The notes beneath the pieces are model-generated. The model was not told where the DNA came from. It worked only from the letters and a program-made list of their open reading frames with translations, and searched no databases. Both the position numbers and the translations under genes were made by a program. A stretch of DNA of 64,000 nt from a virus (taxonomy: Duplodnaviria > Heunggongvirae > Uroviricota > Caudoviricetes), in IMG/VR virus record IMGVR_UViG_3300044799_000708; one strand, written 5' to 3'. Below are positions 4,602 to 46,452 of this stretch, in pieces (within the stretch, counting starts at the first letter, position 1; every line of letters begins with the position of its first letter).

Positions 4602-6238
4602 TTTTCTGCTCTCCTTTTATATGCCATAAGGAATGCTATTACCATAAAGAATGATACTATGCCAGTAAGCATATCTGTCATTCCTATGGCTGTAAATGCT
4701 ATTATCATAATCATTATGATAGCCCCACTTATCATGTCCTTGTCTGGTATTTTCACTTCATTTTCTTTATATTCATGCTCAATATATTTGAAAATCCAGC
4801 CTACGGCACTTAATACAACGGCAAGTATGAAAAGAGATGCCACCAAGCAGCCACCTTCATAAGTAGAGCCAGTCAGCCAAACACCTGAACCGCACATCAT
4901 CCCCTTGAAGTCGGCAGAGTAAGGGGAAGTTGGAATGTTAGGGGGCGCAGGAGGTGAAGGTGGTGATATTCCGACATATGTTAGGCTTGTTCCTTCATAT
5001 AGGAAATAAGCTTCATTTGAGCCTTCATTTATATAATAAGCCATTATGCCAGAACCATAGATTGCGAAATCCCTTGTCCTATGTTCTGTTATCATGCTCG
5101 TAATCCTGTCGAAAATCCATCTGCTCTTTGAATTGTTTTGGAATAGGTGGACTAATGAATTATCGTTAGCCGAATATAGAAGGTGAAGATTTCCAAGTGT
5201 ATCTATCTTCATTGGTATGTGCGTATATCTTCCTCCAGCACCTTCGAATGTTCCTGTTGCGGTTTGAAGTGAAAATGACGTTGATGTATTAGGCATATAA
5301 TTTCCGCATGAATACCAGTTAGTTCCAGCCGTTACTGAACAACTGACTCCGAGAGTATCTGATGTATCAAAAACGTAGTAAAGCTGGTATTTGCTTCCGT
5401 AAGCAGAATTACACAAGATTCCGACAGTATCCGTGCAATTCATCGTAGCATAATAAATAGCATCTATTTCTTTGAAACCTATGGCAGACCCCCTCAAATA
5501 CCTCTGCTCATTAATCGTGTTTAAAACGCCTGTTTTTATGCTTGCAGGAGAGGTTATTTCATCAAGGTTCTTGTCAGCCCTTCCAGCAAAACCGATACCA
5601 TCGTGGTATGTAAAAAATCTATTATCCGTCTTTACAGACTGTGAAAGATATATTGTCCTTGTTTCTCCATAAACGTCTTTTGTAGTGAAATTCCATATAT
5701 TACTTATTTTTTCAGCATATTTTGTCCTTGTCATAGGAAAGGGGAATTGATAATAATTCTGATAAACTCCATATATGTCAATATTGTTTTTGTCAAACAG
5801 AAATACTGCATCTCCGTATATGCAATCGCTAACATCTTCAACGAAACTCCATATGTGGTCTCCCTTCTTTGCATAATAATGTTTCATCACCGTTCCATTG
5901 CAGTAGAATGCATGAATGTCGCTGCTGTTCTGTATAAGGCTTATACCATTTTCTGAAGTTACTATCTGCGAGGAAACTGTGTAAATATTTCCTGACCAGC
6001 TTCCGCCTGATTCCGTTATTACAACATTTTTTATCCCAGAAGGAGATGCATATACAACTTCCACTTGATTGTCATGCGTTATCATATCGCTTATGCCATA
6101 AACTCCAGAAAGGCTGTAAACATTATTATACGTCAAATTTATTGGATTTACCTCGTCAAATATTCCAGCATTTGTATTAACAGGAAATACTAAAAAAAAT
6201 AAAAATAATATTGCTAAAATTGTTAATTTGTTCTTCAT
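4598..6238 (-). CDS. secreted surface (glyco)protein with Pro-rich linker and C-terminal membrane anchor (546 aa)
   Basis: Signal peptide MKNKLTILAILFLFFLVFPVNTNA, many N-x-S/T sequons, linker PPSPPAPPNIPTSP, two C-terminal TM helices, tail YKRRAEK; overlaps next gene ATGA-style. Confidence 0.65.
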   Translation of the reverse strand: MKNKLTILAILFLFFLVFPVNTNAGIFDEVNPINLTYNNVYSLSGVYGISDMITHDNQVEVVYASPSGIKNVVITESGGSWSGNIYTVSSQIVTSENGISLIQNSSDIHAFYCNGTVMKHYYAKKGDHIWSFVEDVSDCIYGDAVFLFDKNNIDIYGVYQNYYQFPFPMTRTKYAEKISNIWNFTTKDVYGETRTIYLSQSVKTDNRFFTYHDGIGFAGRADKNLDEITSPASIKTGVLNTINEQRYLRGSAIGFKEIDAIYYATMNCTDTVGILCNSAYGSKYQLYYVFDTSDTLGVSCSVTAGTNWYSCGNYMPNTSTSFSLQTATGTFEGAGGRYTHIPMKIDTLGNLHLLYSANDNSLVHLFQNNSKSRWIFDRITSMITEHRTRDFAIYGSGIMAYYINEGSNEAYFLYEGTSLTYVGISPPSPPAPPNIPTSPYSADFKGMMCGSGVWLTGSTYEGGCLVASLFILAVVLSAVGWIFKYIEHEYKENEVKIPDKDMISGAIIMIMIIAFTAIGMTDMLTGIVSFFMVIAFLMAYKRRAEK

Positions 6239-15954: not shown

Positions 15955-16098
15955 ATCATATCACCAGTCCCATTTTGCGTTTAAGGTATCTTTCACGCTC
16001 TCGTTCTTCTAATGTTAATTCTCTTTTAGGAAGAGCGAGCAAGTCTACCAGTTCCAGTTTTTCCTTTTGTGTCAGCCCCTTTCTTTTTGACCCTTTCA

Positions 16099-16284
16099 TT
16101 ATATCACCTTTTTTATTTTTTTCTTCCATTCTTTGGCAAGTTTTTCTGCTTCACGTTTACTTGGAAGAACATCTGCATCAAAGACGACAAGACTTCCATC
16201 TTTCTCCTTGTAATATCTTCTCGTCACCCATGCAGGTGGAGAAAGTTCATCATCATAGTATACATCGACATATGTTTTCTTCAT
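16099..16284 (-). CDS. hypothetical small protein (61 aa), copy 1 of exact duplicate
   Basis: Identical protein and DNA to 19976..20161. Confidence 0.55.
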   Translation of the reverse strand: MKKTYVDVYYDDELSPPAWVTRRYYKEKDGSLVVFDADVLPSKREAEKLAKEWKKKIKKVI

Positions 16285-16298
16285 TTTATATCACCTTT
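16101..16298. repeat. 198-bp segment duplicated exactly at 19978..20175
   Basis: Nucleotide-identical; contains a whole 61-aa gene; both ends lie in the tatatcacc junction motif. Confidence 0.8.
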
Positions 16299-16454
16299 CT
16301 TATTTTTCCTATAATTCTATTCAAATTTCCTATTGTTGTTTCAAAATCTTTCTTGAAATAAGCTGAACGCTCATCGATGTCGCTTCTTTTTATTTCATTT
16401 AAAATTTCAATTAAATCATTTGCTTCTGTTTTTGTTAAATGAATTACTTTCATA

Positions 16455-17147
16455 TCAAATCACCTTTTCCAATTTTTTGACGAAATGTGCCTTTTCCCAT
16501 GTCTTTATTTTTTCAAGTTCACCATGAACGAAATCCTCGAATTTGTGTATGTCTTTTTCGATTTCTGCCTGCAGTTTCTTGTTTCTTATGAGTTTTTCTG
16601 CGACCACGCCTGCGACAATGGGTGAGGAAGCAATTGCCCAAGCAAGCGGTGGGTTTACTGCTTCGAGTTCTTCAACCAATGGCATAAGGAACTGCGTGCC
16701 TACCACTGTTGACCCCACGAAAGCATATGGATAGTCTTTTGCCTTAATCCTTTGGACATAAAGAGGATAATGGATTATTGGAATCATGCCGAAAATAGGC
16801 ATTTTTGCCTGCTTCTGGACATGGAGAATTTGCCCTTTTACCGCTTTGTCTATTCCTATGAACAGGTTCTTTTCTTTGTCGTGGGCATATCTGTCACCCT
16901 TAATATTGGCATAGATGTCAAAACCCTTCACCCTTTCTTTTACCTTTTTGAAGAATGGAATTCTTGTATCTATGTCCATTTCCTTTGTTACTTTCAACCT
17001 TTTGTGCCAGTTCTCTTCGCCCATGCCAATAAGTTCCCCTGTCTCTTCATCGAGGACATAAGGCAGTTTTTTCTTTGTGTCCAAGAATCTTATACCTGCT
17101 TCATCTGATATACCTGCAAGTTCGTATCTGAATTCCTTTCCCTTCAT
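16455..17147 (-). CDS. hypothetical protein (230 aa)
   Basis: Array member; ends LEKVI. Confidence 0.55.
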   Translation of the reverse strand: MKGKEFRYELAGISDEAGIRFLDTKKKLPYVLDEETGELIGMGEENWHKRLKVTKEMDIDTRIPFFKKVKERVKGFDIYANIKGDRYAHDKEKNLFIGIDKAVKGQILHVQKQAKMPIFGMIPIIHYPLYVQRIKAKDYPYAFVGSTVVGTQFLMPLVEELEAVNPPLAWAIASSPIVAGVVAEKLIRNKKLQAEIEKDIHKFEDFVHGELEKIKTWEKAHFVKKLEKVI

Positions 17148-18014: not shown

Positions 18015-18133
18015 ATTAAACCACCTTTCCGATTTTCTTGCTTATCTTTAGCTTTTCATTAAGGTTTGCCTGTTTGAAAGGCAAATTCCATAGCTTTAAG
18101 CTTTTGATAAATTCCGAATGCCATCCTGCCATA

Positions 18134-18385
18134 TCAAATCACCCTTCTTAATTTTTTTCTATCCAGTCTTTCTATTTCTTTAAGCGTATCTGCCATTTCC
18201 TTGCTGCAAAAATCAAGTTCTGTTTTTAACTGGTTTCTCACCTTTCTGAAAGGTTCTGCTCTGATACCTACTCTTTTTGAAAGTGAATCGAAATGCTCAT
18301 ATTCGCTGGCTGTTTTGTTTTTCATTCCAAGCACTTCTCCAAAATACTGAACCAACCTTTCCCTTTTATCTGATTTTTTCATCAT
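18134..18385 (-). CDS. hypothetical small protein (83 aa)
   Basis: MM start; ends LRRVI. Confidence 0.5.
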   Translation of the reverse strand: MMKKSDKRERLVQYFGEVLGMKNKTASEYEHFDSLSKRVGIRAEPFRKVRNQLKTELDFCSKEMADTLKEIERLDRKKLRRVI

Positions 18386-19221: not shown

Positions 19222-19451
19222 TACACCACTGCCTCCAATTTCCTTGCCTTCACCTTTTTTATTTTGTATGCCATCTCTCCCAACCGTATTGCTGGCATAT
19301 CTCTAAATATACTGCCCTTTGGTTGGCTTTTTGCCCATTTTTGATATTTTGCCTCATATCTTTTCTTTGCCTCTTCAGCCTGTTCTTTGGTTGGATAAAT
19401 TTTTTTGGGATACCATTCAAATTCATCCATTTCTTCAAGAACAAATGCCAT
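19221..19451 (-). CDS. hypothetical small protein (76 aa)
   Basis: Ends LEAVV. Confidence 0.5.
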   Translation of the reverse strand: MAFVLEEMDEFEWYPKKIYPTKEQAEEAKKRYEAKYQKWAKSQPKGSIFRDMPAIRLGEMAYKIKKVKARKLEAVV

Positions 19452-19476
19452 ATCAAATCACCTTTTTTCCTTTCAT

Positions 19477-19974
19477 CTATACCACCGCCTCAAGTTTTCT
19501 TGCCTTTCTGCATACAAGAATCTCTTCCGAAGGCAGAACGCTTGTAGGCACTTCTGCCCTTTCGACTTCTTCTGTTGGCACTACCGCTTCAGGTGATGGA
19601 ACGCCACCAAATTCCCATTTCTTTCTTTTTGCGCCTTCCACAATCCCTTCGCCGATAGCACGAAATCCATGTTCGATGTGCGTTTCCATACTTGCTATCC
19701 TTTCGGCTGGCGTTAAGCCTTCAATGCTCATCTTGTGGCGCAGACCTTCTGCCATAGCATGAAGAAATTTATGCTCTTCTGGACTTTCAGTTGCCCAGTG
19801 AATAATGCCACTTTTTGTGCGGTGCAGTATTCCACGATGCTTCGGCTTTTCTTCCAGTTCTATTTCCTTTTCTGGAAGCCCTTCCGCAGATAGCTCAACA
19901 TACTCGTCTTTTCTGACTCTTGACCTGTCCATAATGCTTTTCGCTTTCGACCTCTTCAATAGACTTTCTGCCAT
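19477..19974 (-). CDS. hypothetical protein (165 aa)
   Basis: Ends LEAVV. Confidence 0.5.
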   Translation of the reverse strand: MAESLLKRSKAKSIMDRSRVRKDEYVELSAEGLPEKEIELEEKPKHRGILHRTKSGIIHWATESPEEHKFLHAMAEGLRHKMSIEGLTPAERIASMETHIEHGFRAIGEGIVEGAKRKKWEFGGVPSPEAVVPTEEVERAEVPTSVLPSEEILVCRKARKLEAVV

Positions 19975-19975
19975 A

Positions 19976-20161
19976 TCATATCACCTTTTTTATTTTTTTC
20001 TTCCATTCTTTGGCAAGTTTTTCTGCTTCACGTTTACTTGGAAGAACATCTGCATCAAAGACGACAAGACTTCCATCTTTCTCCTTGTAATATCTTCTCG
20101 TCACCCATGCAGGTGGAGAAAGTTCATCATCATAGTATACATCGACATATGTTTTCTTCAT
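19976..20161 (-). CDS. hypothetical small protein (61 aa), copy 2 of exact duplicate
   Basis: Identical to 16099..16284. Confidence 0.55.
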   Translation of the reverse strand: MKKTYVDVYYDDELSPPAWVTRRYYKEKDGSLVVFDADVLPSKREAEKLAKEWKKKIKKVI

Positions 20162-20175
20162 TTTATATCACCTTT
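19978..20175. repeat. second copy of the 198-bp duplication
   Basis: See 16101..16298. Confidence 0.8.
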
Positions 20176-20399
20176 TCCAATTTTTTTATTGCGAACATTC
20201 CTGTTCCATTTTTTCTCGGAAATGCTCTATAATAATATCCTTTTTCTGGTTTTCTCACATAGATTGCTCCATTCTTCAAAATAACAGAAACTCCTGCTCT
20301 TCTAAAATCTTGTATCATTGCATTCCAAATACCTTTGGGTCTGATATAGATTTTATTTCTGAATCGAATTCTTTCAGGCGTAGGTTTCCATTTCTCCAT
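20163..20399 (-). CDS. hypothetical small protein (78 aa)
   Basis: Ends LEKVI. Confidence 0.5.
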   Translation of the reverse strand: MEKWKPTPERIRFRNKIYIRPKGIWNAMIQDFRRAGVSVILKNGAIYVRKPEKGYYYRAFPRKNGTGMFAIKKLEKVI

Positions 20400-21211: not shown

Positions 21212-21430
21212 ATGCGAAAAGGCAAAGAAAAAGGTAAAAGACAGCGAAAAGAAAGCCTGACAAAAGGCGTGATTGGTAAATTCTCTATTGCAAAAAAACC
21301 CAGTAGATTTGATATTGCAAGGGGATTGGAAATGAAGCTGAATCACCCAGAAGGCAGGGGGACAAACAGAAGTCTGGGAAGTAATAAGGCTTTACAGAAC
21401 AAAATCGAACAATTGAGGTCTAAACGGTAG
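21212..21430 (+). CDS. hypothetical basic protein (72 aa)
   Basis: MRKGKEKGKRQRKESLTKG...; uncertain, overlaps convergent ORF by 11 nt. Confidence 0.3.
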   Translation: MRKGKEKGKRQRKESLTKGVIGKFSIAKKPSRFDIARGLEMKLNHPEGRGTNRSLGSNKALQNKIEQLRSKR

Positions 21431-21641
21431 ACTGGAGTTTTTGCTGGTCGATAGAATGTTTCATGTTGTTTAGCTCTTGTATTCTTCTGCGTATTTCCCT
21501 GACCCTTTCGGCAAGTGCGAGAAGTTCCTCCCTGTTGGCATCTGGGTTTGTAGATGCTTCCTCTTCAAGATAACCTTCAAGACCCAGAGAATGCTTTTGA
21601 CCAACCAATTTTATTGGTTGTTTGTCATGCACTCTGGACAA
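21420..21641 (-). CDS. hypothetical small protein (73 aa)
   Basis: Coiled-coil-like (LALAERVREIRRRIQELNN); overlaps downstream gene start. Confidence 0.4.
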   Translation of the reverse strand: MSRVHDKQPIKLVGQKHSLGLEGYLEEEASTNPDANREELLALAERVREIRRRIQELNNMKHSIDQQKLQSTV

Positions 21642-22738
21642 TTTTGACCTCGAAGATGGTCTTCCAAAGCTATTCCATTTTTAATCGCCTGTTCCTTATG
21701 CCAATTGGAATGGTCTGTATGTTCATCCATATTATTCTCCTCCATAAAATTTTTAATTTTTTCTAATATTTTATTTTTGTCCTCATAAATTTCATTTTCC
21801 CATAAAACAAGCATTTTATACCCATATTTTTCATAAATTTTTCTTCGACCATATTCCGTCTGTCTAAATTTTGTAGCACCTTCTCTATGCCAATAATTTC
21901 CGAAAACTTCAATAATTAATTTTTTTCCATTACATTCTATAAAATCTGGATTTATTCCTCCGATAATAAAAGACCCATTACCAACATATTTATATGGTAA
22001 ATTATTTTTTTCAATTAAATTTTTTATTTCTATTTCTGGTTTTGTTGGTCTTTTCAATAATGATTTGAGCATTTTTTCTCTATTTAAGTCAGTTATTTTT
22101 CGTATATTTTTAAGATAAATCAACCAACATTCCCAACTACAAAATTTTCTTCTTGCCATCTTTGATGGATAAATAAGAAATGGTTTCTTACAGGTTTCGC
22201 ATATTTTTCTAACCTTTTCTTTATAATTTGGGTTATTTTCGCCCAATCTATTTTTAGAGAAAAATTTATTTGAACATTCCTGACTACAAAATTTTCTTTT
22301 ACCAGAATTACATTTTTTTGAATGAAACAATTTTATTTCTCCGCAATTTTGGCATTTTATTTTATATTCTTTGTAATTTGGATTATTTTTTCCACGATTA
22401 TAATCACTTTTTCTTTGCCATTCACTATAACATTTTTTATTACAAAATTTACCTATTTTGGACTGTATTTGCGATGGCAATTCTTCTAACCGATTTTTGC
22501 AATTTGGGCAAAAAAGGACAACTCTTTTTTTTCTTCGTTGTGGTTGTGATTCATGTCGTTTTGGGTCTTGCCTATAATATGCATATTGACATTTTTCAGA
22601 ACAAAATTTTATGTTATGAAAACCATCACTTTTATACAACTTTCCACAAAAAATGCAATTTCTATCATGCATTTTTACTCGTTCCCATGCCATGAATATA
22701 TTTAAATAACCCAAATATATAAATAAATATGGCTTCAA
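21611..22738 (-). CDS. homing-endonuclease-like protein: tandem zinc ribbons + C-terminal Vsr/DUF559-like PD-(D/E)xK domain (375 aa)
   Basis: Four CxxC..FCSxxC repeats with recurring G(K/E)NNPNYKE; C-terminal NLPYKYVGNGSFIIGGINPDFIECNGKKLIIEVFGNYWH matches the DUF559/Vsr-like nuclease signature; paralog of 41710..42657. Confidence 0.55.
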   Translation of the reverse strand: MKPYLFIYLGYLNIFMAWERVKMHDRNCIFCGKLYKSDGFHNIKFCSEKCQYAYYRQDPKRHESQPQRRKKRVVLFCPNCKNRLEELPSQIQSKIGKFCNKKCYSEWQRKSDYNRGKNNPNYKEYKIKCQNCGEIKLFHSKKCNSGKRKFCSQECSNKFFSKNRLGENNPNYKEKVRKICETCKKPFLIYPSKMARRKFCSWECWLIYLKNIRKITDLNREKMLKSLLKRPTKPEIEIKNLIEKNNLPYKYVGNGSFIIGGINPDFIECNGKKLIIEVFGNYWHREGATKFRQTEYGRRKIYEKYGYKMLVLWENEIYEDKNKILEKIKNFMEENNMDEHTDHSNWHKEQAIKNGIALEDHLRGQNCPECMTNNQ

Positions 22739-22962
22739 AAGCTATAATCGGGGCTTTTCTCATTCTTATTATTCTCTCGTATATAATGGTCATAAATTCC
22801 CTGAATTTCGATATGGCATACAAGGTTCTGCTTTATATCCCTGCGCTTTTGCTGTTCCTTGTCTTTATGTATATGGGTTTCGGTAACAAGTCTCCTACCG
22901 AAGATGTCGGTGGCTTTCCATATTTAGAATATGCTTATTTCTCCAGTCTCGGCACTTCTTGA
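22729..22962 (+). CDS. small membrane protein (77 aa), uncertain
   Basis: Two hydrophobic helices; only plus-strand ORF in the region and may be spurious. Confidence 0.25.
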   Translation: MASKAIIGAFLILIILSYIMVINSLNFDMAYKVLLYIPALLLFLVFMYMGFGNKSPTEDVGGFPYLEYAYFSSLGTS

Positions 22963-25509
22963 AAAATACAGATAGAGTATGAAGACCGCTATCAAACCGA
23001 TGAAGACATATATCCATATCTGATACGCAGGCAGCACGCAGGCATTCTTCACGCAGCCATATGTGCATATCTGCTCATCTGTCTCTATATATGTCTTGTT
23101 CAGCGAGCCTCTGATATATTTCGTGGTATATTTCACAAGCGTTACGTTATCTTTGCAAGACCATAGTGCATTTTCTTCACCAAGACCCCCGAATGGAAGG
23201 AAGCCCATATAGGCGTAGCCTTTTGACGCTATTTTATCGCCTCCGAAGGCTACAAGCATACCTATTACCTCGTCTTGGCTTGTGGTTATGTTGATGGTAA
23301 GGTTGCTGACATTCATCAATCCGTTTATTATGCTGTTATTCAGTGATGTTATTTCATCCTGTATCATAAACAGTTTGTTCATTATTGTGGTGTTTACCAT
23401 CCCGATTAGATTGTAGATGAGCGTGAGATTATTATTTATGTCTTGAAGTTCTCCCTGAATGGTAAATAATTTTCCCCAGATGCTCTGGTTAACGGCGAAA
23501 ATAGTTGCATTTATTTCGTCTATTTTATTTGACAAGGAAAGATTAGTTGCAGAAATGAGACTGTAAAGGCTGTTATAATGGAGGTTCTGCGTGTAATTCA
23601 TGTCCCAGAGATATGTGAATATTCCGCTTTGGTTGTAGTCGGTGAGAGTCCTGTTCGGGTGAGACCATATTTGCGAAGGCATGGAAAGGATTGTGTTCGT
23701 GATTCCATTTTCGCCGAGAAGCAGTGTTGTTTTTATTGTTGATTCCCTGTAAAATCTCAACTCATCCCAGTTTTGCAGATTTTCTCCTGCCGTATTTATC
23801 GCCAGCGAGGAGTTGTAGTAAAGTTCCGACCAGTAGAAATCATCATATAGGTGATGGCAAGTGGATAAGTATGGGTCGTTGCTGACTATTGTGCTGTTTG
23901 TTATCGGGGAGACATATGTGTAATTGGATATATTTGCAATCGAATCGCAGTAGGGAACTATCAAATTTTTGATGTTTATGATTTGGACATAGCTCCAGTC
24001 TATTTCCCATTTTACATAATTGTCCATTTTTATGCGGTATTCGTATGTATTACCCCTGACCAAATCGATAGGCACGAATATATTGCAACTGCTATCTGCT
24101 TCCGTGAATGTCAATAATGTTTCCAAATCAATATCTGTCCAGCCAGTCCCATTATATTCCTTTAACCAGTATAATGCATCGCAACTGACGCTTGGGGGTG
24201 TTCTGTATTTCCAGTATTGACCATCTTTTGTTTCTAATGCAATTATCGTTATGTTATCTTCAAGTTCGCCTTCTGGCATATTGAATTCTCCTGTATTGGT
24301 GAAAACAGCACAAGCCGATTCCAGAGTTACACTCGTTACTTCAGTTGTTTCACCGCATAGGGTTGTCATGGTATATGGAAGGTCTTTTGACGAAGAGACA
24401 TGGATTTCGCCTGAACCTATTATCTGCTGGTATTGCGATGAAAATTGTGCGATGACATCGACATGGACATAATCGCTTTTGAAAAGATTTAGTGATGCAT
24501 CTGTTATGTTGGTATCGTTGAATAAAATGGACACTATTCCGTTATTTACCAGACCGCTTGCCGTTGCATTAGTTGTTAGTATTGTATTCGTAACCGTGAC
24601 CACGCTTCCTCCTGTGTCTGTAATTTTGTTCGGCAGTTCAATCCAATTTCCGCTTGTGAAATTCTTTATGTGAATGGTGATGCTATCTCCTGATGGTGCG
24701 GAATTCCATATACCTGCCCAAGATATGCCTAATCCTGTTTGCAGTGCTGGCTGTGTCACATTTGTGAAGTTCATTCTTATTTGGATTTGCCGTGTCACAT
24801 TGGTTAATATTTCTCTCACAACCCAGTATACAGAATCCAGAATCCAAGTTGATATATAGTCCCCCGATGTCGTAGTTCCTATGTCCACGATACCAGATGT
24901 GGCATTATTTTGCACAGTTGTCGTTACATAGTAGCAATTCACTATGCTTGGGTATACTCCAACTTCGTTTGGAACTAAAAAATTATAATAATATATCCCT
25001 TCTTCAATAAACGACATCAAAGCTTTTTCAAACAGATGACCACTACCATTTGCTGGTCTGTAAATATCTACATAGCACGTTGCATTATCAACTGGTAGTT
25101 TATTCGCATCCAGAACTTGAACCCATATCTTTCCACATTCTCCGATTGTATATTCTGTCCCATGAACCGTAATCGAAGGTGAATTCTGGTAAACCTGCTG
25201 TTTCATTATCTTCAGTTCATCATATATTTTTTCAAGTGCAGTGGAAGTGTCATTCTTCGGGAGTTCGTTGCATGATGGTGTTTCGAATATTTTTGTGTCA
25301 TCTATCCTGCAACCATATCTGCAATCTTCATGGTAAGTATATGTGCATATTTTTAGTTTCGTATCAAGAATTCCTTTCGTGTATAGGGTAGAATTCGTGC
25401 ATATGTCTGGGCAAGTGCCATTGATAGGCTGTATTTGTATCTGCGCCTTTGCGTTAATTGCTAAAAGAAGAAAGAATATTATCGGAAATATAAAGGCTAT
25501 TTTTTTCAT
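22924..25509 (-). CDS. giant secreted surface (glyco)protein with C-terminal membrane anchor (861 aa)
   Basis: Signal peptide MKKIAFIFPIIFFLLLAINAKA; more than 40 N-x-S/T sequons; C-terminal TM IWIYVFIGLIAVFILYLYF + tail SRSAETGEISIF. Confidence 0.65.
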   Translation of the reverse strand: MKKIAFIFPIIFFLLLAINAKAQIQIQPINGTCPDICTNSTLYTKGILDTKLKICTYTYHEDCRYGCRIDDTKIFETPSCNELPKNDTSTALEKIYDELKIMKQQVYQNSPSITVHGTEYTIGECGKIWVQVLDANKLPVDNATCYVDIYRPANGSGHLFEKALMSFIEEGIYYYNFLVPNEVGVYPSIVNCYYVTTTVQNNATSGIVDIGTTTSGDYISTWILDSVYWVVREILTNVTRQIQIRMNFTNVTQPALQTGLGISWAGIWNSAPSGDSITIHIKNFTSGNWIELPNKITDTGGSVVTVTNTILTTNATASGLVNNGIVSILFNDTNITDASLNLFKSDYVHVDVIAQFSSQYQQIIGSGEIHVSSSKDLPYTMTTLCGETTEVTSVTLESACAVFTNTGEFNMPEGELEDNITIIALETKDGQYWKYRTPPSVSCDALYWLKEYNGTGWTDIDLETLLTFTEADSSCNIFVPIDLVRGNTYEYRIKMDNYVKWEIDWSYVQIINIKNLIVPYCDSIANISNYTYVSPITNSTIVSNDPYLSTCHHLYDDFYWSELYYNSSLAINTAGENLQNWDELRFYRESTIKTTLLLGENGITNTILSMPSQIWSHPNRTLTDYNQSGIFTYLWDMNYTQNLHYNSLYSLISATNLSLSNKIDEINATIFAVNQSIWGKLFTIQGELQDINNNLTLIYNLIGMVNTTIMNKLFMIQDEITSLNNSIINGLMNVSNLTINITTSQDEVIGMLVAFGGDKIASKGYAYMGFLPFGGLGEENALWSCKDNVTLVKYTTKYIRGSLNKTYIETDEQICTYGCVKNACVLPAYQIWIYVFIGLIAVFILYLYFSRSAETGEISIF

Positions 25510-25539: not shown

Positions 25540-28167
25540 TCACAGCACAAGCCCTTGCCATACTGCGACAATCATCAGTATGATAATCGTTATGCCTATC
25601 ATCACCTTCGCTATCATTTCTGGGTCTCTCCAAGAGTATCCGAAATATAAAAGCGTCATAACGGAGAACAGACCCATTATACCGAAGCCAATCGTAAGGA
25701 CAAGTTGACCTGTTATTGAAGGCATCTGGTCTATTATAGGAACTGATGCAAGTATTACATTGAATTCTCTACTGGTATCCATAGTTAATGATGTCATGTT
25801 CGCTACATATCCGCTCTTCGTGGCTGTTATGTTGTGCGGAGTCGAGTTTGTCCTGCTGTTTAATTTTGTTACATAGTAGTCAAGAAGCCACACATCTTCC
25901 GAATCGGAGAATGATGAGACCTCATCGCCTGTTGAGTTGTAGATTTTCACGCTGGCTGAAAGCGGATTCCTGACCGAAAGATTCCAGTAGACGTTGAGCC
26001 TTGAGTAGTTGATATAATAGTCGGTAAGAGTAGTGTTATACAGGCTGTAGGTGTTGTTGTTCCAACATGGAGGATTAATGCAATATGTGTAAATAGCACC
26101 GAAACTGCTGTTTGTTGAGCCTCTTTCTATTCTGCTGTTATAAATGTCAATATGACCATATCTACTGTTGTCTATGGAAAATGCTATGTTGTTTCCATAA
26201 ATATACGAATTGATAATGGTAATATTTAGTTTATCTGTAGGGGAAACTAAAGTATCGAAAGTGCCACTCACAAATGGACTTGCTGCATTATTTATGTTGT
26301 AAAAAGTGGAATTTATTATATCAATTTGTCCTGAACCAGAAATAAACATAGTAATATTATATTCATTGCTGATTTTATCCATTCTGAAGACTGAATTTTT
26401 AAGCGTAATATTGTTTCCGCCTATGGCATTCCCAAAACTGGGAATGGTTGTATTATATACACTGACATTGTCAAGAACAGAGTCATTCACTGAAGACAGC
26501 AGACTGAAAGCCCCCCTCTCCCTTATGAAAATGTTTGAAATTTCAAGATTCTTGCTTCTATAAGCAAATATTCCATCCTCGCCGTCAAATATTCCATTCT
26601 TTATTTTCGAACCAGTGGAATTGCAGAGATATATACCACTTATATTGTCTGGAACTGGGTTTATGTCAACGGTGTCATTCGTGAATAACGGCACTTTGCC
26701 GTCAGTTGCAGTAAGGTTAATGAATGACCTTAACGAGTGGCAGGCACTTCCAGTTGCAGCAAGAATTCTATAATCAAGAACTATGTTGTCATGCGAACTT
26801 ATGTTTTCAAGAGTAGTGTTGTAAATAATTGATAAATCCATCCCAACATAATTGTCATACAATTCAGAGTTTACTATGGTTATATTGTTACTACCAGCAA
26901 CATTCAAGCCTTCTACAATTGGTATACCAATTCTTGTAACATTATGAATAACAAGTTTTTCTGCATATGTATTGTTAGAACCTGAAATCCTTATGCCATA
27001 ACCAAATGAAGATGTTGAATTTATGTTATACACCTCTATATCGCTCAAAATGACGTTATTGCATCTATCAACAAAAAGACCATAGGGGCTGCTATAATTC
27101 ATGTCATAAATCGTAGTATTTTCAATAGTTTCGTTGTTGCAGGGAACTGAAATATATATTCCCCTTTGACCACTTTTCTCGGATATGGAATTGTTTATGA
27201 CAGTATTGTTTACATTCGATAATTGAATGCCATATCTCGAATTGTTCGATACAACCACATTATCGAAAATAGCGAGGTTTACTGAATTCAAAGAAATGCC
27301 ATCTTGGTAATTGGATATGTTTACGTTCCTTGCCGTGAAATTGTAGCTGTTGGAAGAAATGTCTATACCTCTCACATTGGCACTATTTCCGTAAGCGGTG
27401 AAATTCTCGACTATGTTGTTCTTGCCATCAGTGAGGCGCAATGCGGTGCTGTTCGACAGACATCTTATGTTGGTGAAAACAGAATCATTAATCGGCTTGT
27501 CAGCATAAAGGCATCGGTTAGCAGATGTTATGTTTATGTTATTAATTATGTAATTGTTTCCCCCACCTAAGTCAATTCCATTATAGCCATAGATAATGCC
27601 GTTAGAAAATGTCATGTTAAAACCGTAATTAAGTCCAAAAATTGTGGCTTGGCTGCCAGCAGAAACATTAATCATAAAATCATTGAGCGTAAAATTCATT
27701 ATGTTCCCATTGAGCTGAATCCCTTGTGTTGTGACATTGGTAATGGATATGTCGTTCATTGTAATGTTAATGTTGCTGGCATTACTCAAGTATCTCATCC
27801 CATAGCTACCGCCACTAAAGTTAATGTTTGACAAAAGCAAGTTTGTTATTCCGCCCTGAAACTGTATACCCTGATTGGCTGTTGAGTTTATGCTACAATT
27901 TTCAATAGTTGCTAAATTAATTAAGGTTGTAGTATATACTAAACTTTGTAAACCATTTAAGTATGAGCCATTGCAATCCAATGTGATATTGCTGGCAGTA
28001 ATATAAAAGCACCATCCAAGAGGTGAATTTATCGAGGCGTTCATCACATAGGTTTCATTCTCGGTGGAAAGAGTCTGGCAGGTGTCGATGTATGTCAGGG
28101 CAGAGACACTATTACAAAAAATAAATAAAAATAAGAATACAATTGTCAAAATGCCTATCTTCTTCAT
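25540..28167 (-). CDS. giant surface protein with right-handed parallel beta-helix repeats and C-terminal membrane anchor (875 aa)
   Basis: Signal peptide MKKIGILTIVFLFLFIFCNSVSA; repeated N-N-x-I/V-x-N pectin-lyase-like turns (NNTVINNSISEKSGQRGIYIS.., NNVILSDIEVYN..); very many sequons; two C-terminal TM helices. Confidence 0.65.
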   Translation of the reverse strand: MKKIGILTIVFLFLFIFCNSVSALTYIDTCQTLSTENETYVMNASINSPLGWCFYITASNITLDCNGSYLNGLQSLVYTTTLINLATIENCSINSTANQGIQFQGGITNLLLSNINFSGGSYGMRYLSNASNINITMNDISITNVTTQGIQLNGNIMNFTLNDFMINVSAGSQATIFGLNYGFNMTFSNGIIYGYNGIDLGGGNNYIINNINITSANRCLYADKPINDSVFTNIRCLSNSTALRLTDGKNNIVENFTAYGNSANVRGIDISSNSYNFTARNVNISNYQDGISLNSVNLAIFDNVVVSNNSRYGIQLSNVNNTVINNSISEKSGQRGIYISVPCNNETIENTTIYDMNYSSPYGLFVDRCNNVILSDIEVYNINSTSSFGYGIRISGSNNTYAEKLVIHNVTRIGIPIVEGLNVAGSNNITIVNSELYDNYVGMDLSIIYNTTLENISSHDNIVLDYRILAATGSACHSLRSFINLTATDGKVPLFTNDTVDINPVPDNISGIYLCNSTGSKIKNGIFDGEDGIFAYRSKNLEISNIFIRERGAFSLLSSVNDSVLDNVSVYNTTIPSFGNAIGGNNITLKNSVFRMDKISNEYNITMFISGSGQIDIINSTFYNINNAASPFVSGTFDTLVSPTDKLNITIINSYIYGNNIAFSIDNSRYGHIDIYNSRIERGSTNSSFGAIYTYCINPPCWNNNTYSLYNTTLTDYYINYSRLNVYWNLSVRNPLSASVKIYNSTGDEVSSFSDSEDVWLLDYYVTKLNSRTNSTPHNITATKSGYVANMTSLTMDTSREFNVILASVPIIDQMPSITGQLVLTIGFGIMGLFSVMTLLYFGYSWRDPEMIAKVMIGITIIILMIVAVWQGLVL

Positions 28168-28255: not shown

Positions 28256-28606
28256 TTACAGGAAGACCGTAAGGATGAACATCAGCACACCAGCACCAAC
28301 TACCAGACCAACTACAGTCGCAGAAAGCAACGGTATTCCAGTCACCTGATTGACTGCGCTGATAAGGGTCGGAATAAGGTATACTGCAATAGTTACGCCA
28401 ATGATACCTTCCACGAATCCCTTCGTGTATTCTCTCACATCGAACTTTGCGTATTCAGCCATATTTCTCACTGAAAAATAGTTCTTCGAGATTGCTAATA
28501 AAGAGGGCTTACCAAAAAAGTGGAGGGATGTCCCCTCAAAAAAATATAGGAATCCTATAAAAAATGTGAACCACCACACAAAAAATTTTATATATGTTAA
28601 GAACAA
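28256..28606 (-). CDS. membrane protein (116 aa)
   Basis: Three hydrophobic helices; divergent from the plus-strand island. Confidence 0.45.
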   Translation of the reverse strand: MFLTYIKFFVWWFTFFIGFLYFFEGTSLHFFGKPSLLAISKNYFSVRNMAEYAKFDVREYTKGFVEGIIGVTIAVYLIPTLISAVNQVTGIPLLSATVVGLVVGAGVLMFILTVFL

Positions 28607-28617
28607 TAAGGTAATTA

Positions 28618-29100
28618 ATGGTAGACATAAATTTTAATTTAACAGAAAGAGAAAAAGGATGGTTAGAAGGTATCATAGATGGCGAAGGTTATCTTGCAAT
28701 TTTAAAAAATAAGAACAAGAATAGTAAAAATGGATATGTATGGTCAATGTATCTATCTGTTACCAGCACAAGAAGGGAAATATGTGAAAAATTATTAAAA
28801 TTGTTTAGTAATGAAAAATATGTTGGCGGTAATATAATTAAAAAACCTGCAAAAAATAAAAATTGCAAGGATGCTTATTATTTTATGGCTAAAAGATATT
28901 CTGCCAAAAGGATTTTGCCTCAATTAAATTTTGTAATAAAAGAAAGGCATAGAGAATTACTAATTAAGGCACTCGACCTTGTAGAAAAATATAGAATAGG
29001 TGAATATTTTATGGGCGGAAATGGAAGACCGCCAGAAGTAGAAAATGAAATTATTAAATTATATGAGGAAATGAAAATATTAAATAAGAGAGGTAATTAA
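28618..29100 (+). CDS. LAGLIDADG homing endonuclease, single-motif type (160 aa)
   Basis: Motif KGWLEGIIDGEGYLAI near N-terminus; size and K-rich C-terminal half fit I-CreI-like homodimeric enzymes; TTTTATATAT 22 nt upstream of ATG. Confidence 0.7.
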   Translation: MVDINFNLTEREKGWLEGIIDGEGYLAILKNKNKNSKNGYVWSMYLSVTSTRREICEKLLKLFSNEKYVGGNIIKKPAKNKNCKDAYYFMAKRYSAKRILPQLNFVIKERHRELLIKALDLVEKYRIGEYFMGGNGRPPEVENEIIKLYEEMKILNKRGN

Positions 29101-29972: not shown

Positions 29973-30332
29973 ATGGCTAATATACGAGATAGATTACAGA
30001 AGACCGAAGGCGGTGAGCTTTTCGGTCTCGAAGAAGCTTTGGCAAAAATAAATATGGAACTGCTGAACCCTTCGGGTGAAAAGCTGTATACTGTTTCTGA
30101 TGTGACTGCAACGGAAATCTTTCCTCTTGCATATCTGCTTACGCTTTCAAAAAAACTGGATTCGAAGCTTATGGAAAAATGGGCTGAAAAATTCCTGCTA
30201 TTGAGGATTTCAAGGTTCAGGCTTGGAAGGCGTGAATTTGTTTTTATTTCAGGGGGTCTGCGAGAAGTAAGTGAAGCAAGGAAAGGCGGACAGAAGGGAG
30301 GCTTGGCAAATCTTTTTTCGGGCTTTAAATGA
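29973..30332 (+). CDS. hypothetical protein (119 aa)
   Basis: Plus-island ORF. Confidence 0.45.
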   Translation: MANIRDRLQKTEGGELFGLEEALAKINMELLNPSGEKLYTVSDVTATEIFPLAYLLTLSKKLDSKLMEKWAEKFLLLRISRFRLGRREFVFISGGLREVSEARKGGQKGGLANLFSGFK

Positions 30333-31207: not shown

Positions 31208-31732
31208 GTGGCTATTGACCAGATTACACAGATGCACGATGGTCACGTTTCACTCGATGAACTTTGGACAATATTAGATGCAAGGGCATCTGCCTCTACG
31301 AGAAATAGGTTTGTTGCGGATATAATGCTGAAATCGAGGAAAAGAGACCTTACCATTATGTTCACGACACAGCTTCTGGATATGCTTGATAAAAGGGTGA
31401 GGAAAATAATGGATTTTACAGCATACACATTACTAAACAGAGTTGAGACATTGGGGAAATGTTTCATCTTTCGTGGTGGTTATCCAAAAGACCATATGCT
31501 TCTCAAGAGTTTCATGTTCTACACACAGCCTGTATTTGGTATGTTCAATACGAACCAAGAAATCCAAATGGAGGAATCAAGCGATAATGCGCCTATGAAA
31601 ATTGTGTTCCAAGAAAGCCCAGAAAAGCCACCGAAATATTTTGATACATGGGAAGATTGTGACCATTATGCTGAAAAGTGGTGGGAAAAAAATGGCAAGG
31701 AACTTTTATCTTTTCTTATAACAGGTCAGTGA
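31208..31732 (+). CDS. Zot-like (inovirus pI-type) P-loop ATPase, C-terminal portion lacking in-frame Walker A
   Basis: HVSLDELW (Walker B hhhhDE) followed by RKRDLTIMFTTQLLDMLDKRVR matching the Zot family R-x-x-D..TQ motif; track start is GTG. Confidence 0.45.
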   Translation: MAIDQITQMHDGHVSLDELWTILDARASASTRNRFVADIMLKSRKRDLTIMFTTQLLDMLDKRVRKIMDFTAYTLLNRVETLGKCFIFRGGYPKDHMLLKSFMFYTQPVFGMFNTNQEIQMEESSDNAPMKIVFQESPEKPPKYFDTWEDCDHYAEKWWEKNGKELLSFLITGQ

Positions 31733-36522: not shown

Positions 36523-37079
36523 ATTTGCATATCCTCATTTGAAGCCAAATGTTCTTTCTTATAGATAAACATCTTCTTTTTCATTCCCTTCGCATATCTT
36601 ATCGTCTGGGAAGTCCCTCCCTTTACACCTTTATGGTTGAATGCGATAAGAATATCGGAGATTTCAGCGATTATTTTGTTCCTTTCATAGAACCTCTCTG
36701 GTGAAGGTTTTTTCGGGTCTGGGTAGATGATTAGAAATGGAATTCCGTTTTTCTTTGCATATATCTGGGCAAAAGTGTCCACTCCGATTGCGCCACCAGA
36801 TACGATTATGTCCTTTTGCGTGATGTCCAGCCATTCCTTGTTCAGTTTGTCAAGTTTTTCAAGGACTTCCATAAGCCCCCATCCATATCTGTTGCCAACG
36901 ATTCCAATAATCCGAATATTATTTCCTGTTGGTATTCCGATTTTTTTAATAGTTTTCTTCCATGCCTTTACCTTTATATCCCTTGACAGCCTTTCAATCT
37001 GCTTTCTGCTCTCTTGTGTGAAACTCCCAACCGCTAAAGCGTGTGGGCTTCTATTGGACTTTGCCATAGTTGCCTCCAA
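36519..37079 (-). CDS. DprA/Smf-like (SLOG superfamily) Rossmann-fold protein (186 aa)
   Basis: IIGIVGNRYGWG ... IIVSGGAIGVDTFAQIYAKKNGIPFLIIYPD resembles the DprA GxxxGID motif region; overlaps the TnpB 3' end by 29 nt. Confidence 0.35.
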   Translation of the reverse strand: MEATMAKSNRSPHALAVGSFTQESRKQIERLSRDIKVKAWKKTIKKIGIPTGNNIRIIGIVGNRYGWGLMEVLEKLDKLNKEWLDITQKDIIVSGGAIGVDTFAQIYAKKNGIPFLIIYPDPKKPSPERFYERNKIIAEISDILIAFNHKGVKGGTSQTIRYAKGMKKKMFIYKKEHLASNEDMQI

Positions 37080-38169
37080 TAGTTCTGGGCATAATCACAG
37101 ATGCCCCTGAACTTGACATTTCGCCAAGTCCTCGTTTGGCTATGTTTATAGCCCCATTCCTGTCTGCATTGTCCTCGTATCCGCATTTGCATTTGAATAA
37201 TCCTTTATTCCTCTTTCCTGTTTGACCACATTTTGAACAAGTCTTTGATGTATATGCCTCGTTTACCTTTATGACATGTATGCCCTCCCAATTCGCCTTG
37301 TATTCGATATAATTTGATAACTCGGCAAAAGGCATCGTATTGAGTCTGCGATTGAATTTCCTTCCTTTATCACTATTTTTCGTTATTCCTTTTAAGTTTC
37401 CGATTGCAATCACTGAATTGGTCTCTTTTGCCTTATTCACTATTTTTCGGCTAATTTTGTGTAGCTGGTCTTTCACTTTGCGTTTTTCCGTGTTTCCTAT
37501 CCTTTTGATTGTCTTGTTTGCTTTCTTCTCTCCCAATTTCTTCCGCAGATGGAAATAGTGTCCTCTTATTTGTCGAATCTCCCTGCCATAGTATCTGGTC
37601 ATGCCATCGGATAATTGCACCACAGATGCGATTCTCCTGATGCCCAAGTCTATGCCAAGAACATCTTTGTATTCGGTTATCATTTTGATTTCCTTTTCTA
37701 TGGTTATGTGTGCATACCATTCATTGTTTCTTTTTACTATCTTGCTATCACAGAATGTGAAATCCTTCATTTTGTTTTCATAATGTTTGGGTATGTTAAC
37801 TGCGACCCAGAATTGTCTCCTTTGTTTTGTCGGGACTTTGAGCCAGTATTTGAATTTCTTTGTGGGTTGTTTCTCCAATCTTGATACATCATTGCGTAAA
37901 TATAATGGTTGCTCGGTAAGGTTTCTGAATGGTTCTGTTATCATTCGGATAGCCGATGTGACCTGCTGACAATATGTGCTTCCATTCTTGAACCAAGAAT
38001 ATTGTGGCTCTATGTCGTTATTTCTACACTCCTGAACCTGCTGGCATATATTGTTGAAACTATCATATTCCTGTTGGAGTATGGCTTCCTTTATGTTGGT
38101 TAAGCCGACTACTTTTCCCATTAATGATATTTGCTGGTTGGGCTTGGTTCTATTGATGCAAAAGGTCAT
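37051..38169 (-). CDS. tnpB: TnpB-like RNA-guided endonuclease, second and unrelated copy (372 aa)
   Basis: C-terminal zinc ribbon CSKCGQTGKRNKGLFKCKCGYEDNADRNGAINIAKRG (OrfB_Zn_ribbon + RuvC-III); no TnpA. Confidence 0.8.
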   Translation of the reverse strand: MTFCINRTKPNQQISLMGKVVGLTNIKEAILQQEYDSFNNICQQVQECRNNDIEPQYSWFKNGSTYCQQVTSAIRMITEPFRNLTEQPLYLRNDVSRLEKQPTKKFKYWLKVPTKQRRQFWVAVNIPKHYENKMKDFTFCDSKIVKRNNEWYAHITIEKEIKMITEYKDVLGIDLGIRRIASVVQLSDGMTRYYGREIRQIRGHYFHLRKKLGEKKANKTIKRIGNTEKRKVKDQLHKISRKIVNKAKETNSVIAIGNLKGITKNSDKGRKFNRRLNTMPFAELSNYIEYKANWEGIHVIKVNEAYTSKTCSKCGQTGKRNKGLFKCKCGYEDNADRNGAINIAKRGLGEMSSSGASVIMPRTIGGNYGKVQ

Positions 38170-38993: not shown

Positions 38994-39477
38994 ACTCGAA
39001 GCTCAAAGTCCCATCCGCATCTGCGAAAGCGCAGTATCTGTAGATTTCGAAATATTTCAGTTTATCCTCGCTTCTGAAGTATTTCATTACCTCGTCTTCA
39101 TCTATACTTTCCACTTCCTTTCCTTCTATTACCATTTTCGCTCTTGGGGTCACAGGAAATATGGTTCTGACATCCTTTTCGATAAGCGCATCTTCAGATT
39201 CGACAGCCCCAGATTCTTTGGCATCATATATGGACTGAAAAAGGGTTTCAGTATAGTTTACAGCCTGTTCCAGACCCTTGTCCAAAGTTTTCAGTTCTAA
39301 TATTGTCGGCTTGTTTGGCAGGAAAATAAAAGCCCTCAATTCGCAGAAAGGTGCTGGTGTTTTGCCCTTTAAGTGATATTGCTCGGCTGAATATTGTCGC
39401 ACAAAACTTACACGAAAAATTGTTTGTTTAACTGCCATTCTCGTTGCCCCCCACCTGCTTTTATTGCAGGTCTTCAT
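38935..39477 (-). CDS. hypothetical protein (180 aa)
   Basis: Minus array ORF. Confidence 0.45.
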   Translation of the reverse strand: MKTCNKSRWGATRMAVKQTIFRVSFVRQYSAEQYHLKGKTPAPFCELRAFIFLPNKPTILELKTLDKGLEQAVNYTETLFQSIYDAKESGAVESEDALIEKDVRTIFPVTPRAKMVIEGKEVESIDEDEVMKYFRSEDKLKYFEIYRYCAFADADGTLSFEYDEDDCRSIERIRLQRQVP

Positions 39478-41455: not shown

Positions 41456-41462
41456 ATTCTTT

Positions 41463-41717
41463 TTACCTCCCTTCTGTTTTCACATATTTTTTGATGGTTT
41501 TTTTGCTTTCATATATGAACATACAACCGCATATCAGAACTATAAAGCACATCGCACCGACAACCATAGAAATTAGAATTGGAACTACACATGGCTGTAG
41601 GATATTTATTACAAAACCAATACCTATTGAACAAAATATGATAAATATTCCTATTATTATCTCCCACCAGTCATATTCTTCTATTTCTATATATTGTCTT
41701 GCCATGATTTTATCCAA
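41463..41717 (-). CDS. small membrane protein (84 aa)
   Basis: Two TM helices. Confidence 0.4.
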   Translation of the reverse strand: MDKIMARQYIEIEEYDWWEIIIGIFIIFCSIGIGFVINILQPCVVPILISMVVGAMCFIVLICGCMFIYESKKTIKKYVKTEGR

Positions 41718-42657
41718 CCTTTATTTTTTCTAATATCATATTTTCATTATCAAAATCTTCTTCCCATACAACAATACAATTCCAGCCAAATTTAGAATAA
41801 TGTTCCTTTCGTCTTTTTTCATACTCATCTGGGGAACAACTATTCCATATAGGACACATTTTTTTGGGTCTAGTTTCAATACAAATTTTTTCTCCATTGA
41901 TATTTACAAAATCTGGACTCCTGTAACCTATCAGAAATGAACCATTACCAACATATTTATATGGTAAATTATTTTTTTCAATAATTTCTATCATTTTTCT
42001 TTCGAGTGAAGTTGGTCGTTTAAAACGACCTTTTAATGAATTTCTAATAACTTTTTCCCTATATTCAGATTTTGTCCACAACTCCTTTATTTCTTTGCAT
42101 CTTTTTTCTCTAAATTCTGGATTTGACCATCTTTTTTTTATATTTGCAATCATTTTTTCTCTTTGTTTCGGGTCTGCCCATTTTTTTTCTATAATTTTCA
42201 TTCTTTTTGCTCGGTATTCTGGGTCTTTCCATTTTTCTTGCATGGATTTTATTATTTTTTCCTTAAATCTTATGTCTGACCATCGCTCTTTTGTAAATTC
42301 ATTTTTGGAATGTTTTCCAATATTATAATGATGCCCCCCTTTGAATTCTGTCTCTGGGGAATAATGTTTACCAGAATGAAATTTGGATATTTTTTCTTTT
42401 GCCTCTTTACTCATTGTTCTACCTAACATTGGATGCTTTTTTCCTTCCCATTGTTTAATGCCTTTATTCCATATCTTTATTTCACCGTTTTTAAATTTTT
42501 CTTTATAATTTTCTAATTTAGTCCAATGAATTATTTTTCCTTCTGCGTATAATTTTTTTTTCGTTTTACTTCCCCTTTTACCTGATAATTTGAGTCTATT
42601 ATCTATTTCTTTTGTTAAACCTTTATTCCATGCCTTATGTCTTTTTTGGAATCTCAT
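41710..42657 (-). CDS. homing-endonuclease-like protein: NUMOD-type DNA-binding repeats + Vsr/DUF559-like nuclease domain (315 aa)
   Basis: GRTMSKEAKEKISKFHSGKHYSPE (NUMOD3-like G..HS.E.K.KIS) and repeated W(K/A)DPEYR/KQREK modules; C-terminal NNLPYKYVGNGSFLIGYRSPDFVNINGEKICIE is paralogous to 21611..22738. Confidence 0.55.
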   Translation of the reverse strand: MRFQKRHKAWNKGLTKEIDNRLKLSGKRGSKTKKKLYAEGKIIHWTKLENYKEKFKNGEIKIWNKGIKQWEGKKHPMLGRTMSKEAKEKISKFHSGKHYSPETEFKGGHHYNIGKHSKNEFTKERWSDIRFKEKIIKSMQEKWKDPEYRAKRMKIIEKKWADPKQREKMIANIKKRWSNPEFREKRCKEIKELWTKSEYREKVIRNSLKGRFKRPTSLERKMIEIIEKNNLPYKYVGNGSFLIGYRSPDFVNINGEKICIETRPKKMCPIWNSCSPDEYEKRRKEHYSKFGWNCIVVWEEDFDNENMILEKIKVG

Positions 42658-46448: not shown

Positions 46449-46452
46449 TTTT

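Follow-up and report, generated by a model that had tools for sequence, protein, structure and literature searches.

Introduction

The homing biology of Hef in T4-related phages is reportedly the subject of work by Sandegren et al. in 2005, and the EDxHD (Vsr-like) homing endonuclease family reportedly that of Dassa et al. in 2009. Members of this family, of which I-Bth0305I is the prototype, combine an N-terminal NUMOD/helix-turn-helix (HTH) DNA-binding region with a C-terminal Vsr-like nuclease (PMC3239194, PMC3384342). The family is counted in reviews as the sixth class of homing endonucleases (PMC3384342, PMC6083498) and includes free-standing phage genes such as Hef (PMC3239194). Its name-giving motif comprises residues E170, D196, N208, H213 and D222 of I-Bth0305I, which correspond to E25, D51, H64, H69 and D97 of Vsr (Taylor et al. 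2011, PMC3239194). Here, two genes, A and B, are described from a 64,000-nucleotide (nt) stretch of viral DNA, IMG/VR record IMGVR_UViG_3300044799_000708, referred to below as the window. Both are probably free-standing Vsr-like (EDxHD-type) homing endonuclease genes that home by site-specific cleavage and recombinational repair.

The two genes resemble I-Bth0305I in their C-terminal Vsr-like domain, for which it is the best match in the PDB (by sequence and fold for A, by fold for B), in having a modular N-terminal DNA-binding region, in the retention of the E, D and H positions in A and in the shared acidic residue of the "IEV" motif. They differ from it in setting, DNA-binding modules and active-site details. 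I-Bth0305I comes from a Bacillus phage, lies in a group I intron in recA and carries two NUMOD2/HTH motifs, whereas A and B are free-standing in a virus-like element linked to archaeal lineages and carry four zinc ribbons (A) or NUMOD3-like motifs followed by W-x-DPEYR helical repeats (B). Both genes have Glu for the final Asp of the motif, A has Phe at the "x" position where I-Bth0305I has Asn, and B is without the His. Hef, likened here by description, is also free-standing between phage genes and present or absent among relatives, although the host domain is a different one. E. coli Vsr (PDB 1CW0/1VSR) and DUF559 proteins (PDB 3HRL) have the same fold, and Vsr E25, D51 and H69 align with A. 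However, the repair nickase Vsr has a single domain, a zinc site and His64, whereas A and B have long arrays for reading DNA and behave as insertions. An A-like build, ribbons joined to a DUF559/Vsr-like domain, is seen in mycobacteriophage proteins of the Seagreen gp73 / Malithi gp54 type ("DNA endonuclease (vsr)"), which are 21-22% identical to A over 71% of its length and have three CxxC...FCSxxC ribbons compared with the four of A.

The original prediction, made from the DNA letters alone, had held that this domain fusion is not a textbook homing endonuclease class. Since the closest solved relative of the shared domain by sequence and predicted fold is I-Bth0305I, the class is a known one, and NUMOD/HTH modules joined to a Vsr-like nuclease are what defines the EDxHD family (PMC3239194, PMC3384342, PMC6083498). 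Related viral proteins are common, and the zinc-ribbon plus Vsr-like fusion is not novel either, as it already exists in Seagreen gp73 and in many viral proteins of BFVD. What differs here is the free-standing archaeal-virus-like setting, the number of ribbons in A (four) and the combination of NUMOD3-like motifs with helical repeats in B, along with the Glu in place of the final Asp in both genes and the missing His in B.

A shared Vsr-like nuclease domain

Gene A is found as an open reading frame (ORF) of 375 amino acids (aa) at 21611..22738 on the minus strand, beginning with a TTG at 22738. Its true start is most likely M23 (22672) rather than this TTG, because the 68%-identical orthologue P0002 begins there. 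The coordinates of A, B and associated features are given in Table 1. Both ORFs lie where the original prediction had placed them, on the minus strand, and all of the motifs it quoted are present: NLPYKYVGNGSF, PDF and IE in the common C-terminal block, the four ribbons of A, and GRTMSKEAKEKISKFHSGKHYSPE plus the repeats in B. By BLASTP, residues 224-329 of A align with residues 208-313 of B at 45% identity (E 4e-22). The shared C-terminal domain spans 110 aa, and the rest of the two proteins gives no BLASTP alignment, the N-termini being unrelated. Profile-profile comparison of the A and B subfamilies (hhalign) gives a probability of 100% (E 1.8e-52).

Table 1. Coordinates of genes A and B, their parts and the associated insertion sites in the window
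Feature	Coordinates	Strand	Description and basis
Gene A, probable free-standing Vsr-like (EDxHD-type) homing endonuclease gene	21611..22672	(-)	353 aa from M23; ORF, DUF559, fold, empty alleles
Gene A, predicted N-terminal DNA-binding array	22127..22657	(-)	four CxxC...FC(S/N)xxC zinc ribbons (YacG / zf-FCS-like) and two G(K/E)NNPNYK linkers
Gene A, predicted Vsr-like nuclease domain	21791..22054	(-)	KRPTKPE ... NPDF ... IIEVFGNYWH ... QTEYGRR ... LVLWENE; E235, D265, E277, H284, E295 candidate residues
Gene A, C-terminal tail (residues 337-375)	21611..21730	(-)	captured N-terminus (HxxxH...CPEC) of the 91-aa neighbour, in frame
Remaining two thirds of the split 91-aa gene (coiled-coil part)	21420..21641	(-)	-1 frame relative to the A tail
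Gene B, free-standing Vsr-like endonuclease-family gene with His-less active site	41710..42657	(-)	315 aa; ORF, domain shared with A, fold
Gene B, predicted N-terminal DNA-binding region	42022..42633	(-)	WNKGLTKE-type and NUMOD3-like motifs (residues 9-102), then five helical W-x-DPEYR repeats (126-212)
Gene B, predicted nuclease domain	41713..42021	(-)	KRPTSLE ... SPDF ... CIETRPKKMCPIWNSCSPDEYEKRRKEHY ... VVWEED; E219, D249, E261, E280 kept, His column lost
Replaced stretch, B codons 60-315 and the 84-aa ORF 41463-41717	41462..42480	(-)	1019 bp replaced by 76 unrelated bp in L053/L054
Empty site for the third family member	39439..39447	(-)	uninterrupted 8-nt spacer in the window; blastn junctions and junction sequence

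By sequence and modelled fold, the shared domain is a Vsr/DUF559-type PD-(D/E)xK nuclease, as the original prediction had proposed. Pfam DUF559 (PF04480) scores 28.4 bits for A and 31.3 bits for its L001 orthologue, both above the cut-off of 20.6, and weaker Vsr and MTES_1575 matches to A accompany it. In the PADLOC "homing endonuclease" model, positions 167-258 of 266 match A, and these positions cover the catalytic domain of I-Bth0305I. That catalytic domain (3r3p) is also the top sequence match of A alone in the PDB (E 1.6e-3), and a profile of 69 A-type homologues finds 3r3p at E 9e-7, followed by Vsr (1cw0, 1.3e-4) and the DUF559 structure 3hrl (4.6e-3). The B sequence alone gives chance-level matches only in the PDB. 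AlphaFold2 models built from alignments have a mean predicted local distance difference test (pLDDT) score of 85 for A and 83 for B, with the nuclease domains at 90-98. When these models are compared with the PDB by Foldseek, I-Bth0305I (3r3p) ranks first for both, with a template modelling (TM) score of 0.77 for A (E 3.8e-4) and 0.70 for B (E 1.4e-3), followed by 3hrl and other PD-(D/E)xK folds.

The active-site positions of A are E235, D265, F279 (the "x"), H284 and E295, to which is added Glu277 of the "IEV" motif shared with I-Bth0305I, so that the E-D-x-H-D residues are all present in A except for the last. Invariant columns among the 69 A-type homologues are E, PDF, E, G, H and W. Gene B departs from this pattern, as E219, D249, E261 and E280 are kept and the aligned column, as mapped with hhalign, is without His (IETRPKKMCPIWNSC); no invariant His is found among 71 B-type sequences. 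Across the family, the His is kept in 201 of 228 members with a recognisable motif. Among the other 27 are B's clade (IE[TV]R...) and a clade in which Lys takes the position of the His (IEVYARYYK compared with IEVFGDYWH), members of which include P0119, P0180, P0206, P0209, P0218, P0219 and P0225. The Lys clade and the E-x-R clade of B look like natural experiments in general-base swapping within one fold.

Exchangeable DNA-binding modules and family size

The N-terminal halves, described in the original prediction as completely different, are distinct modular DNA-binding arrays. A motif scan places the ribbons of A at residues 28-50, 77-103, 129-155 and 180-204 and the G(K/E)NNPNYK motifs at 116-123 and 166-173. 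The array is modelled by AlphaFold2 as paired beta-hairpins followed by helices (pLDDT 87-96), and Foldseek matches it weakly to YacG. PHROG families named "HNH endonuclease" match A in the ribbon region only, and the array resembles in sequence the DNA-binding parts of haloarchaeal virus HNH proteins. The ribbons of A stand in place of NUMOD/HTH modules, in the same position and with the same presumed role. In gene B, GRTMSKEAKEKISKFHSGKHYSPE forms the NUMOD3-like stretch at residues 79-102; Pfam NUMOD3 scores 18.8 bits for B, under the cut-off of 20.4, and many homologues score clearly. The motif scan finds the five repeats of B to be 17 residues each, of the type W-x-(D/N)-P-E-(Y/F)-R, and AlphaFold2 models them as five 16-residue helices (129-212) with pLDDT of about 89 or higher. 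The same repeats recur in the GIY-YIG protein P0233.

A search with the A nuclease domain against 1.84 billion cluster representatives (clusters at 50% identity) finds 8,107 proteins at E up to 1e-3 and 4,981 at 1e-10. Among the 150 best matches listed, the domain is almost always C-terminal and the proteins are mostly 200-350 aa long. The N-termini of the family vary and include NUMOD3, HTH_23/HTH_38, sigma-70 region 4 and zf-FCS modules, and such apparent swapping is typical of homing endonucleases. The original prediction had called A and B paralogous, which stands at the level of the family but not for duplicates within this genome: closer nuclease-domain relatives, 50-58% identical to A and 56-66% identical to B, are found elsewhere, compared with 45% between the two. 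Duplication within the genome was rejected because each gene has closer relatives elsewhere than in the other, and these identities indicate that A and B are separate acquisitions.

Filled, empty and decayed alleles at three sites

Relatives of the window were gathered with two anchors, the 68-aa protein encoded at 28259-28462 (14 metagenome loci) and homologues of the SPFH protein. The site of gene A (site 1) is filled in the window, in L003 (identical), in L057 (68%) and in L001 (64%, with two ribbons only), and is empty in the syntenic loci L047 and L036. In L047, the large protein gene is followed by two small ORFs and then directly by an intact 91-aa gene, and L036 is without both gene A and the 91-aa gene. 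The site of gene B (site 2), which follows the SPFH gene, is filled in the window and in L004 and empty in L050, L051, L052, L055 and L056. The SPFH proteins of these five relatives are 73-82% identical to that of the window, and synteny extends through the flanking genes on either side; sample 3300044798 yielded both L004, in which B is present, and the B-less L055 and L056. The gene-less alleles that the original prediction had suggested seeking in homologous genomes are present for both genes, those of B being joined by a stump in two further relatives.

These two relatives, L053 and L054, have an SPFH protein 98% identical to that of the window, followed by an 85-aa ORF made up of B residues 1-59 and 26 unrelated residues. 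The common 177 nt differ at one base. The flanks of the replaced 1019 bp are 97.8% and 90.2% identical in L053 and 97.5% and 86.5% identical in L054 (blastn). The stump is a decayed copy of B.

L053 also carries a third member of the family at 4694-5767, which encodes 357 aa with NUMOD3 (Pfam 57 bits), one zinc ribbon and a Vsr-like domain with IIELFGDYWH. The gene has a Shine-Dalgarno-like GGTGGGGGG on one side and the ATG that starts the next gene on the other, at a point where the spacer of the window is uninterrupted (site 3). The left flank is about 90% identical across its 2-kb block as a whole, with near identity in the last ~110 nt, and the right flank is 96% identical.

All copies are free-standing and lie just 5' of a gene start. 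Free-standing genes with gene-less alleles, as expected of mobile elements, are found at all three sites with conserved flanks. Beyond these loci, the close B homologues P0123 and P0126 occur in unrelated virus-like contexts, and one Pacearchaeota contig carries two family copies. An intron or intein location was rejected for both A and B: the neighbours are intact and separately conserved, and the empty alleles show unbroken intergenic spacers.

Fusion of gene A to its neighbour

The last 39 residues of gene A (MDEHTDHSNWHKEQ...CPECMTNNQ*) are the N-terminus of the neighbouring gene, as seen by alignment with the intact 91-aa genes of L001 (10661-10936) and L047 (17000-17275). In L001, this gene lies 3 nt from the stop codon of the endonuclease. 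In the window and in L057 (neighbour region 1450-1728), gene A lacks a stop codon of its own. Both then carry 26 extra nt behind CPEC, which change the reading frame, and what remains of the neighbour survives as a separate ORF, the product of which in the window is 71% identical to the C-terminal portion of the L001 gene, which is intact. Misassembly was rejected as the cause, as the same arrangement is found in the 68%-identical L057. Programmed frameshifting from the A tail into 21420-21641 was likewise rejected, as a -1-frame stop stands where the junction would be in L057 and the downstream part starts with an ATG of its own. Target-site immunity, entrenchment and chance are the possibilities for what the fusion represents.

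Gene A is under purifying selection, with a ratio of non-synonymous to synonymous substitution rates (dN/dS) of 0.15 against L057 and 0.23 against L001, and of 0.11 for the nuclease domain alone.

Proposed mechanism and alternative explanations

As homing endonucleases, A and B would use their N-terminal arrays to read a long target, A with its four zinc ribbons and B with its NUMOD3-like motifs and five helical repeats, and the C-terminal Vsr-like PD-(D/E)xK nuclease would then cut the DNA. When gene-carrying and gene-less related genomes co-infect one cell, the enzyme would cut the gene-less genome near the empty site, and recombinational repair off the gene-carrying genome would copy the gene and some flanking DNA into the break. 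Because the cassettes are placed in the short spacer upstream of a gene start, they would ride on the neighbours' expression signals, using the transcription and translation signals already in place. The truncated B stump in near-identical relatives and the joining of A with the first third of the neighbouring gene would represent later stages of the life cycle.

Several points weigh against this interpretation. DNA cleavage, the target site and homing by recombination are properties that we infer for the A and B proteins. Presence/absence polymorphism is also typical of ordinary accessory viral genes. Gene A stands at the same position in two relatives that are only 64-68% identical and is under purifying selection, which partly resembles the vertical inheritance of a useful gene. 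Both A and B have Glu where the EDxHD motif has its final catalytic Asp, and B is without the His thought to be the general base in Vsr and I-Bth0305I. Pfam finds no nuclease domain and no DUF559 match in B, and the B-type profile gives no match to PDB sequences at E up to 1. In Seagreen (L058), the look-alike gene at 46364-47161 overlaps the 3' end of a DNA methyltransferase gene, an arrangement that recalls vsr-dcm and hints at another role for some members of the family.

Such a role is the substance of one alternative, namely that A and B are accessory viral nucleases for host DNA degradation, superinfection exclusion or anti-defence, gained and lost as "moron" genes without homing. The purifying selection on A and its synteny in diverged relatives would fit it, as would the occurrence of DUF559 and MTES_1575 domains in restriction-like proteins, the names "restriction enzyme" or "endonuclease" borne by BFVD neighbours and the pairing of mycobacteriophage homologues with a DNA methyltransferase. 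Against this, long and swapped sequence-reading arrays (NUMOD3, zinc ribbons, HTH) are a hallmark of homing endonucleases (PMC3239194), there are three independent insertion sites in one genome lineage, all exactly in intergenic spacers, and the closest characterised protein is a proven homing endonuclease. No methyltransferase adjoins A or B, and none of the cytosine type was found next to either in the part of the window ORFs that was scanned. An accessory role is distinctly unlikely on balance. The same neighbourhood bears on whether A and B could be true very-short-patch (Vsr) mismatch-repair endonucleases, a name given by the Joint Genome Institute (JGI) to P0001 and several homologues and echoed by weak Pfam and NCBIfam Vsr matches. 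The JGI name is unjustified, because A falls far under the cut-off of NCBIfam vsr (TIGR00632; 23.1 against 97.85). The Pfam Vsr score of A (PF03852) is 17.2 against 27, and B has no match. Furthermore, A has Phe in place of Vsr His64, its best structural match is I-Bth0305I rather than Vsr, about 200 residues of sequence-reading modules in A have no counterpart in Vsr, and the genes are polymorphic insertions in a virus-like genome, all of which makes a mismatch-repair function extremely improbable.

A further alternative concerns B alone with its His-less clade, which might no longer be a nuclease but a decaying or domesticated DNA-binding protein that has kept the fold and lost the chemistry. 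The loss of the His column in B and about eight close relatives, set against its retention in most of the family, speaks for it, as do the missing Pfam and PDB sequence matches of the domain and the stump in L053/L054, since a gene already reduced to a stump is one whose loss is tolerated. Yet E219, D249 and E261 are invariant across the 71 sequences and Arg283 is kept in at least 90% of them. The His-less clade has a conserved pattern of its own (IE[TV]R...C.I[WF]) and identical P0123 copies are found on 11 contigs, which suggests that the clade persists and spreads. In addition, a sister clade has Lys, the usual PD-(D/E)xK general base, at the His column, so that base swapping seems possible in the Vsr-like fold. 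A non-nuclease B is a possibility to be taken seriously, though a doubtful one.

If B is instead an active homing endonuclease, its clade may have swapped the His general base for another residue, the candidates being the conserved E-x-R or, in the sister clade, Lys. This may be a shift back toward classical PD-(D/E)xK chemistry in a gene that is still mobile. The takeover of the neighbour's N-terminus by A could destroy its own target site or make its loss costly. That the base replacement in B's clade and the fusion of A are both more than natural history is, as a joint reading, unlikely.

Genomic setting

The window has 35% GC and consists mainly of small minus-strand genes; no tRNA genes were found in it. 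It encodes two TnpB proteins, an SPFH protein, two radical-SAM-type proteins, a beta-helix protein, a Zot-like ATPase, YopX, an HNH protein and a LAGLIDADG-like protein. Gene A is flanked by the gene for an 861-aa surface-type protein and a small gene, and gene B begins 35 nt past the SPFH stop and has an 8-nt overlap with the next ORF. The conserved core includes the very hydrophobic 68-aa anchor protein (minus strand), which is 81-99% identical across relatives and adjoins two secreted proteins that are very large, evolve fast and are rich in N-x-S/T sequons (22924-25509 and 25540-28167, both minus strand), one of which is the beta-helix protein. The core also holds the Zot/M13-protein-I-like ATPase (31208-31732, plus strand), which is the sole match in PHROG searches with ten core genes. 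This gene set is reminiscent of a module from archaeal viruses of the spindle-shaped or pleomorphic kind. The host is plausibly an archaeon, because homologues of A and B in metagenome-assembled genomes (MAGs) come mostly from DPANN archaea and Patescibacteria. A DNA search with window positions 15000-39000 gave no match among GenBank phages. IMG/VR scans with the 21420-21641 neighbour gene and the SPFH gene gave no match, and those with 29973-30332 and the 68-aa anchor gave two short contigs only, reaching neither A nor B.

Other putative mobile genes occur in the window. The original prediction had counted a LAGLIDADG gene and two HNH genes among its selfish nucleases. Of these, the HNH gene at 48218-48514 scores above the Pfam threshold, while that at 45691-46002 has no Pfam match. 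The LAGLIDADG-like gene at 28618-29100 (plus strand) scores 21.4 bits, just below the Pfam cut-off, and is polymorphic: it lies between the same two neighbours in L039 and L049 and is absent in L036, L037, L038, L040, L001 and L047. One TnpB gene (OrfB_IS605 / Cas12f-like TNB; 37051-38169, minus strand) is a clean insertion relative to L053, where the 1146 bp at 37018-38165 of the window correspond to 11 bp between flanks that are 97% identical. A second TnpB gene lies at 1189-2412, and L055 and L056 carry TnpB genes at different positions. A 215-nt direct repeat (97% identical; 16098-16312 and 19975-20189) brackets 3.7 kb with at least five genes, and the near-identical contig L003 is without the stretch between the repeats, through either deletion by repeat recombination or assembly collapse. 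A motif of about 41 nt is found at gene starts (16438-16478, 18117-18157, 19436-19476, 19959-19999 and 20146-20186); on the coding (minus) strand it reads AAAAGGTGATTTGATATG, with a conserved GGTGAT ribosome-binding site and ATG.

Implications

The result corrects the names "very-short-patch-repair endonuclease" and "hypothetical protein" under which these proteins stand in databases. Across three sites, the lineage provides matching alleles in the filled, empty and decayed states, which are substrates for finding the target sites of new long-recognition nucleases and form a natural series for the cycle of invasion, fixation and decay. Far from being confined to a few phages and ocean samples, the little-studied EDxHD/Vsr-like family is large and mostly unannotated, with about 8,100 clusters.

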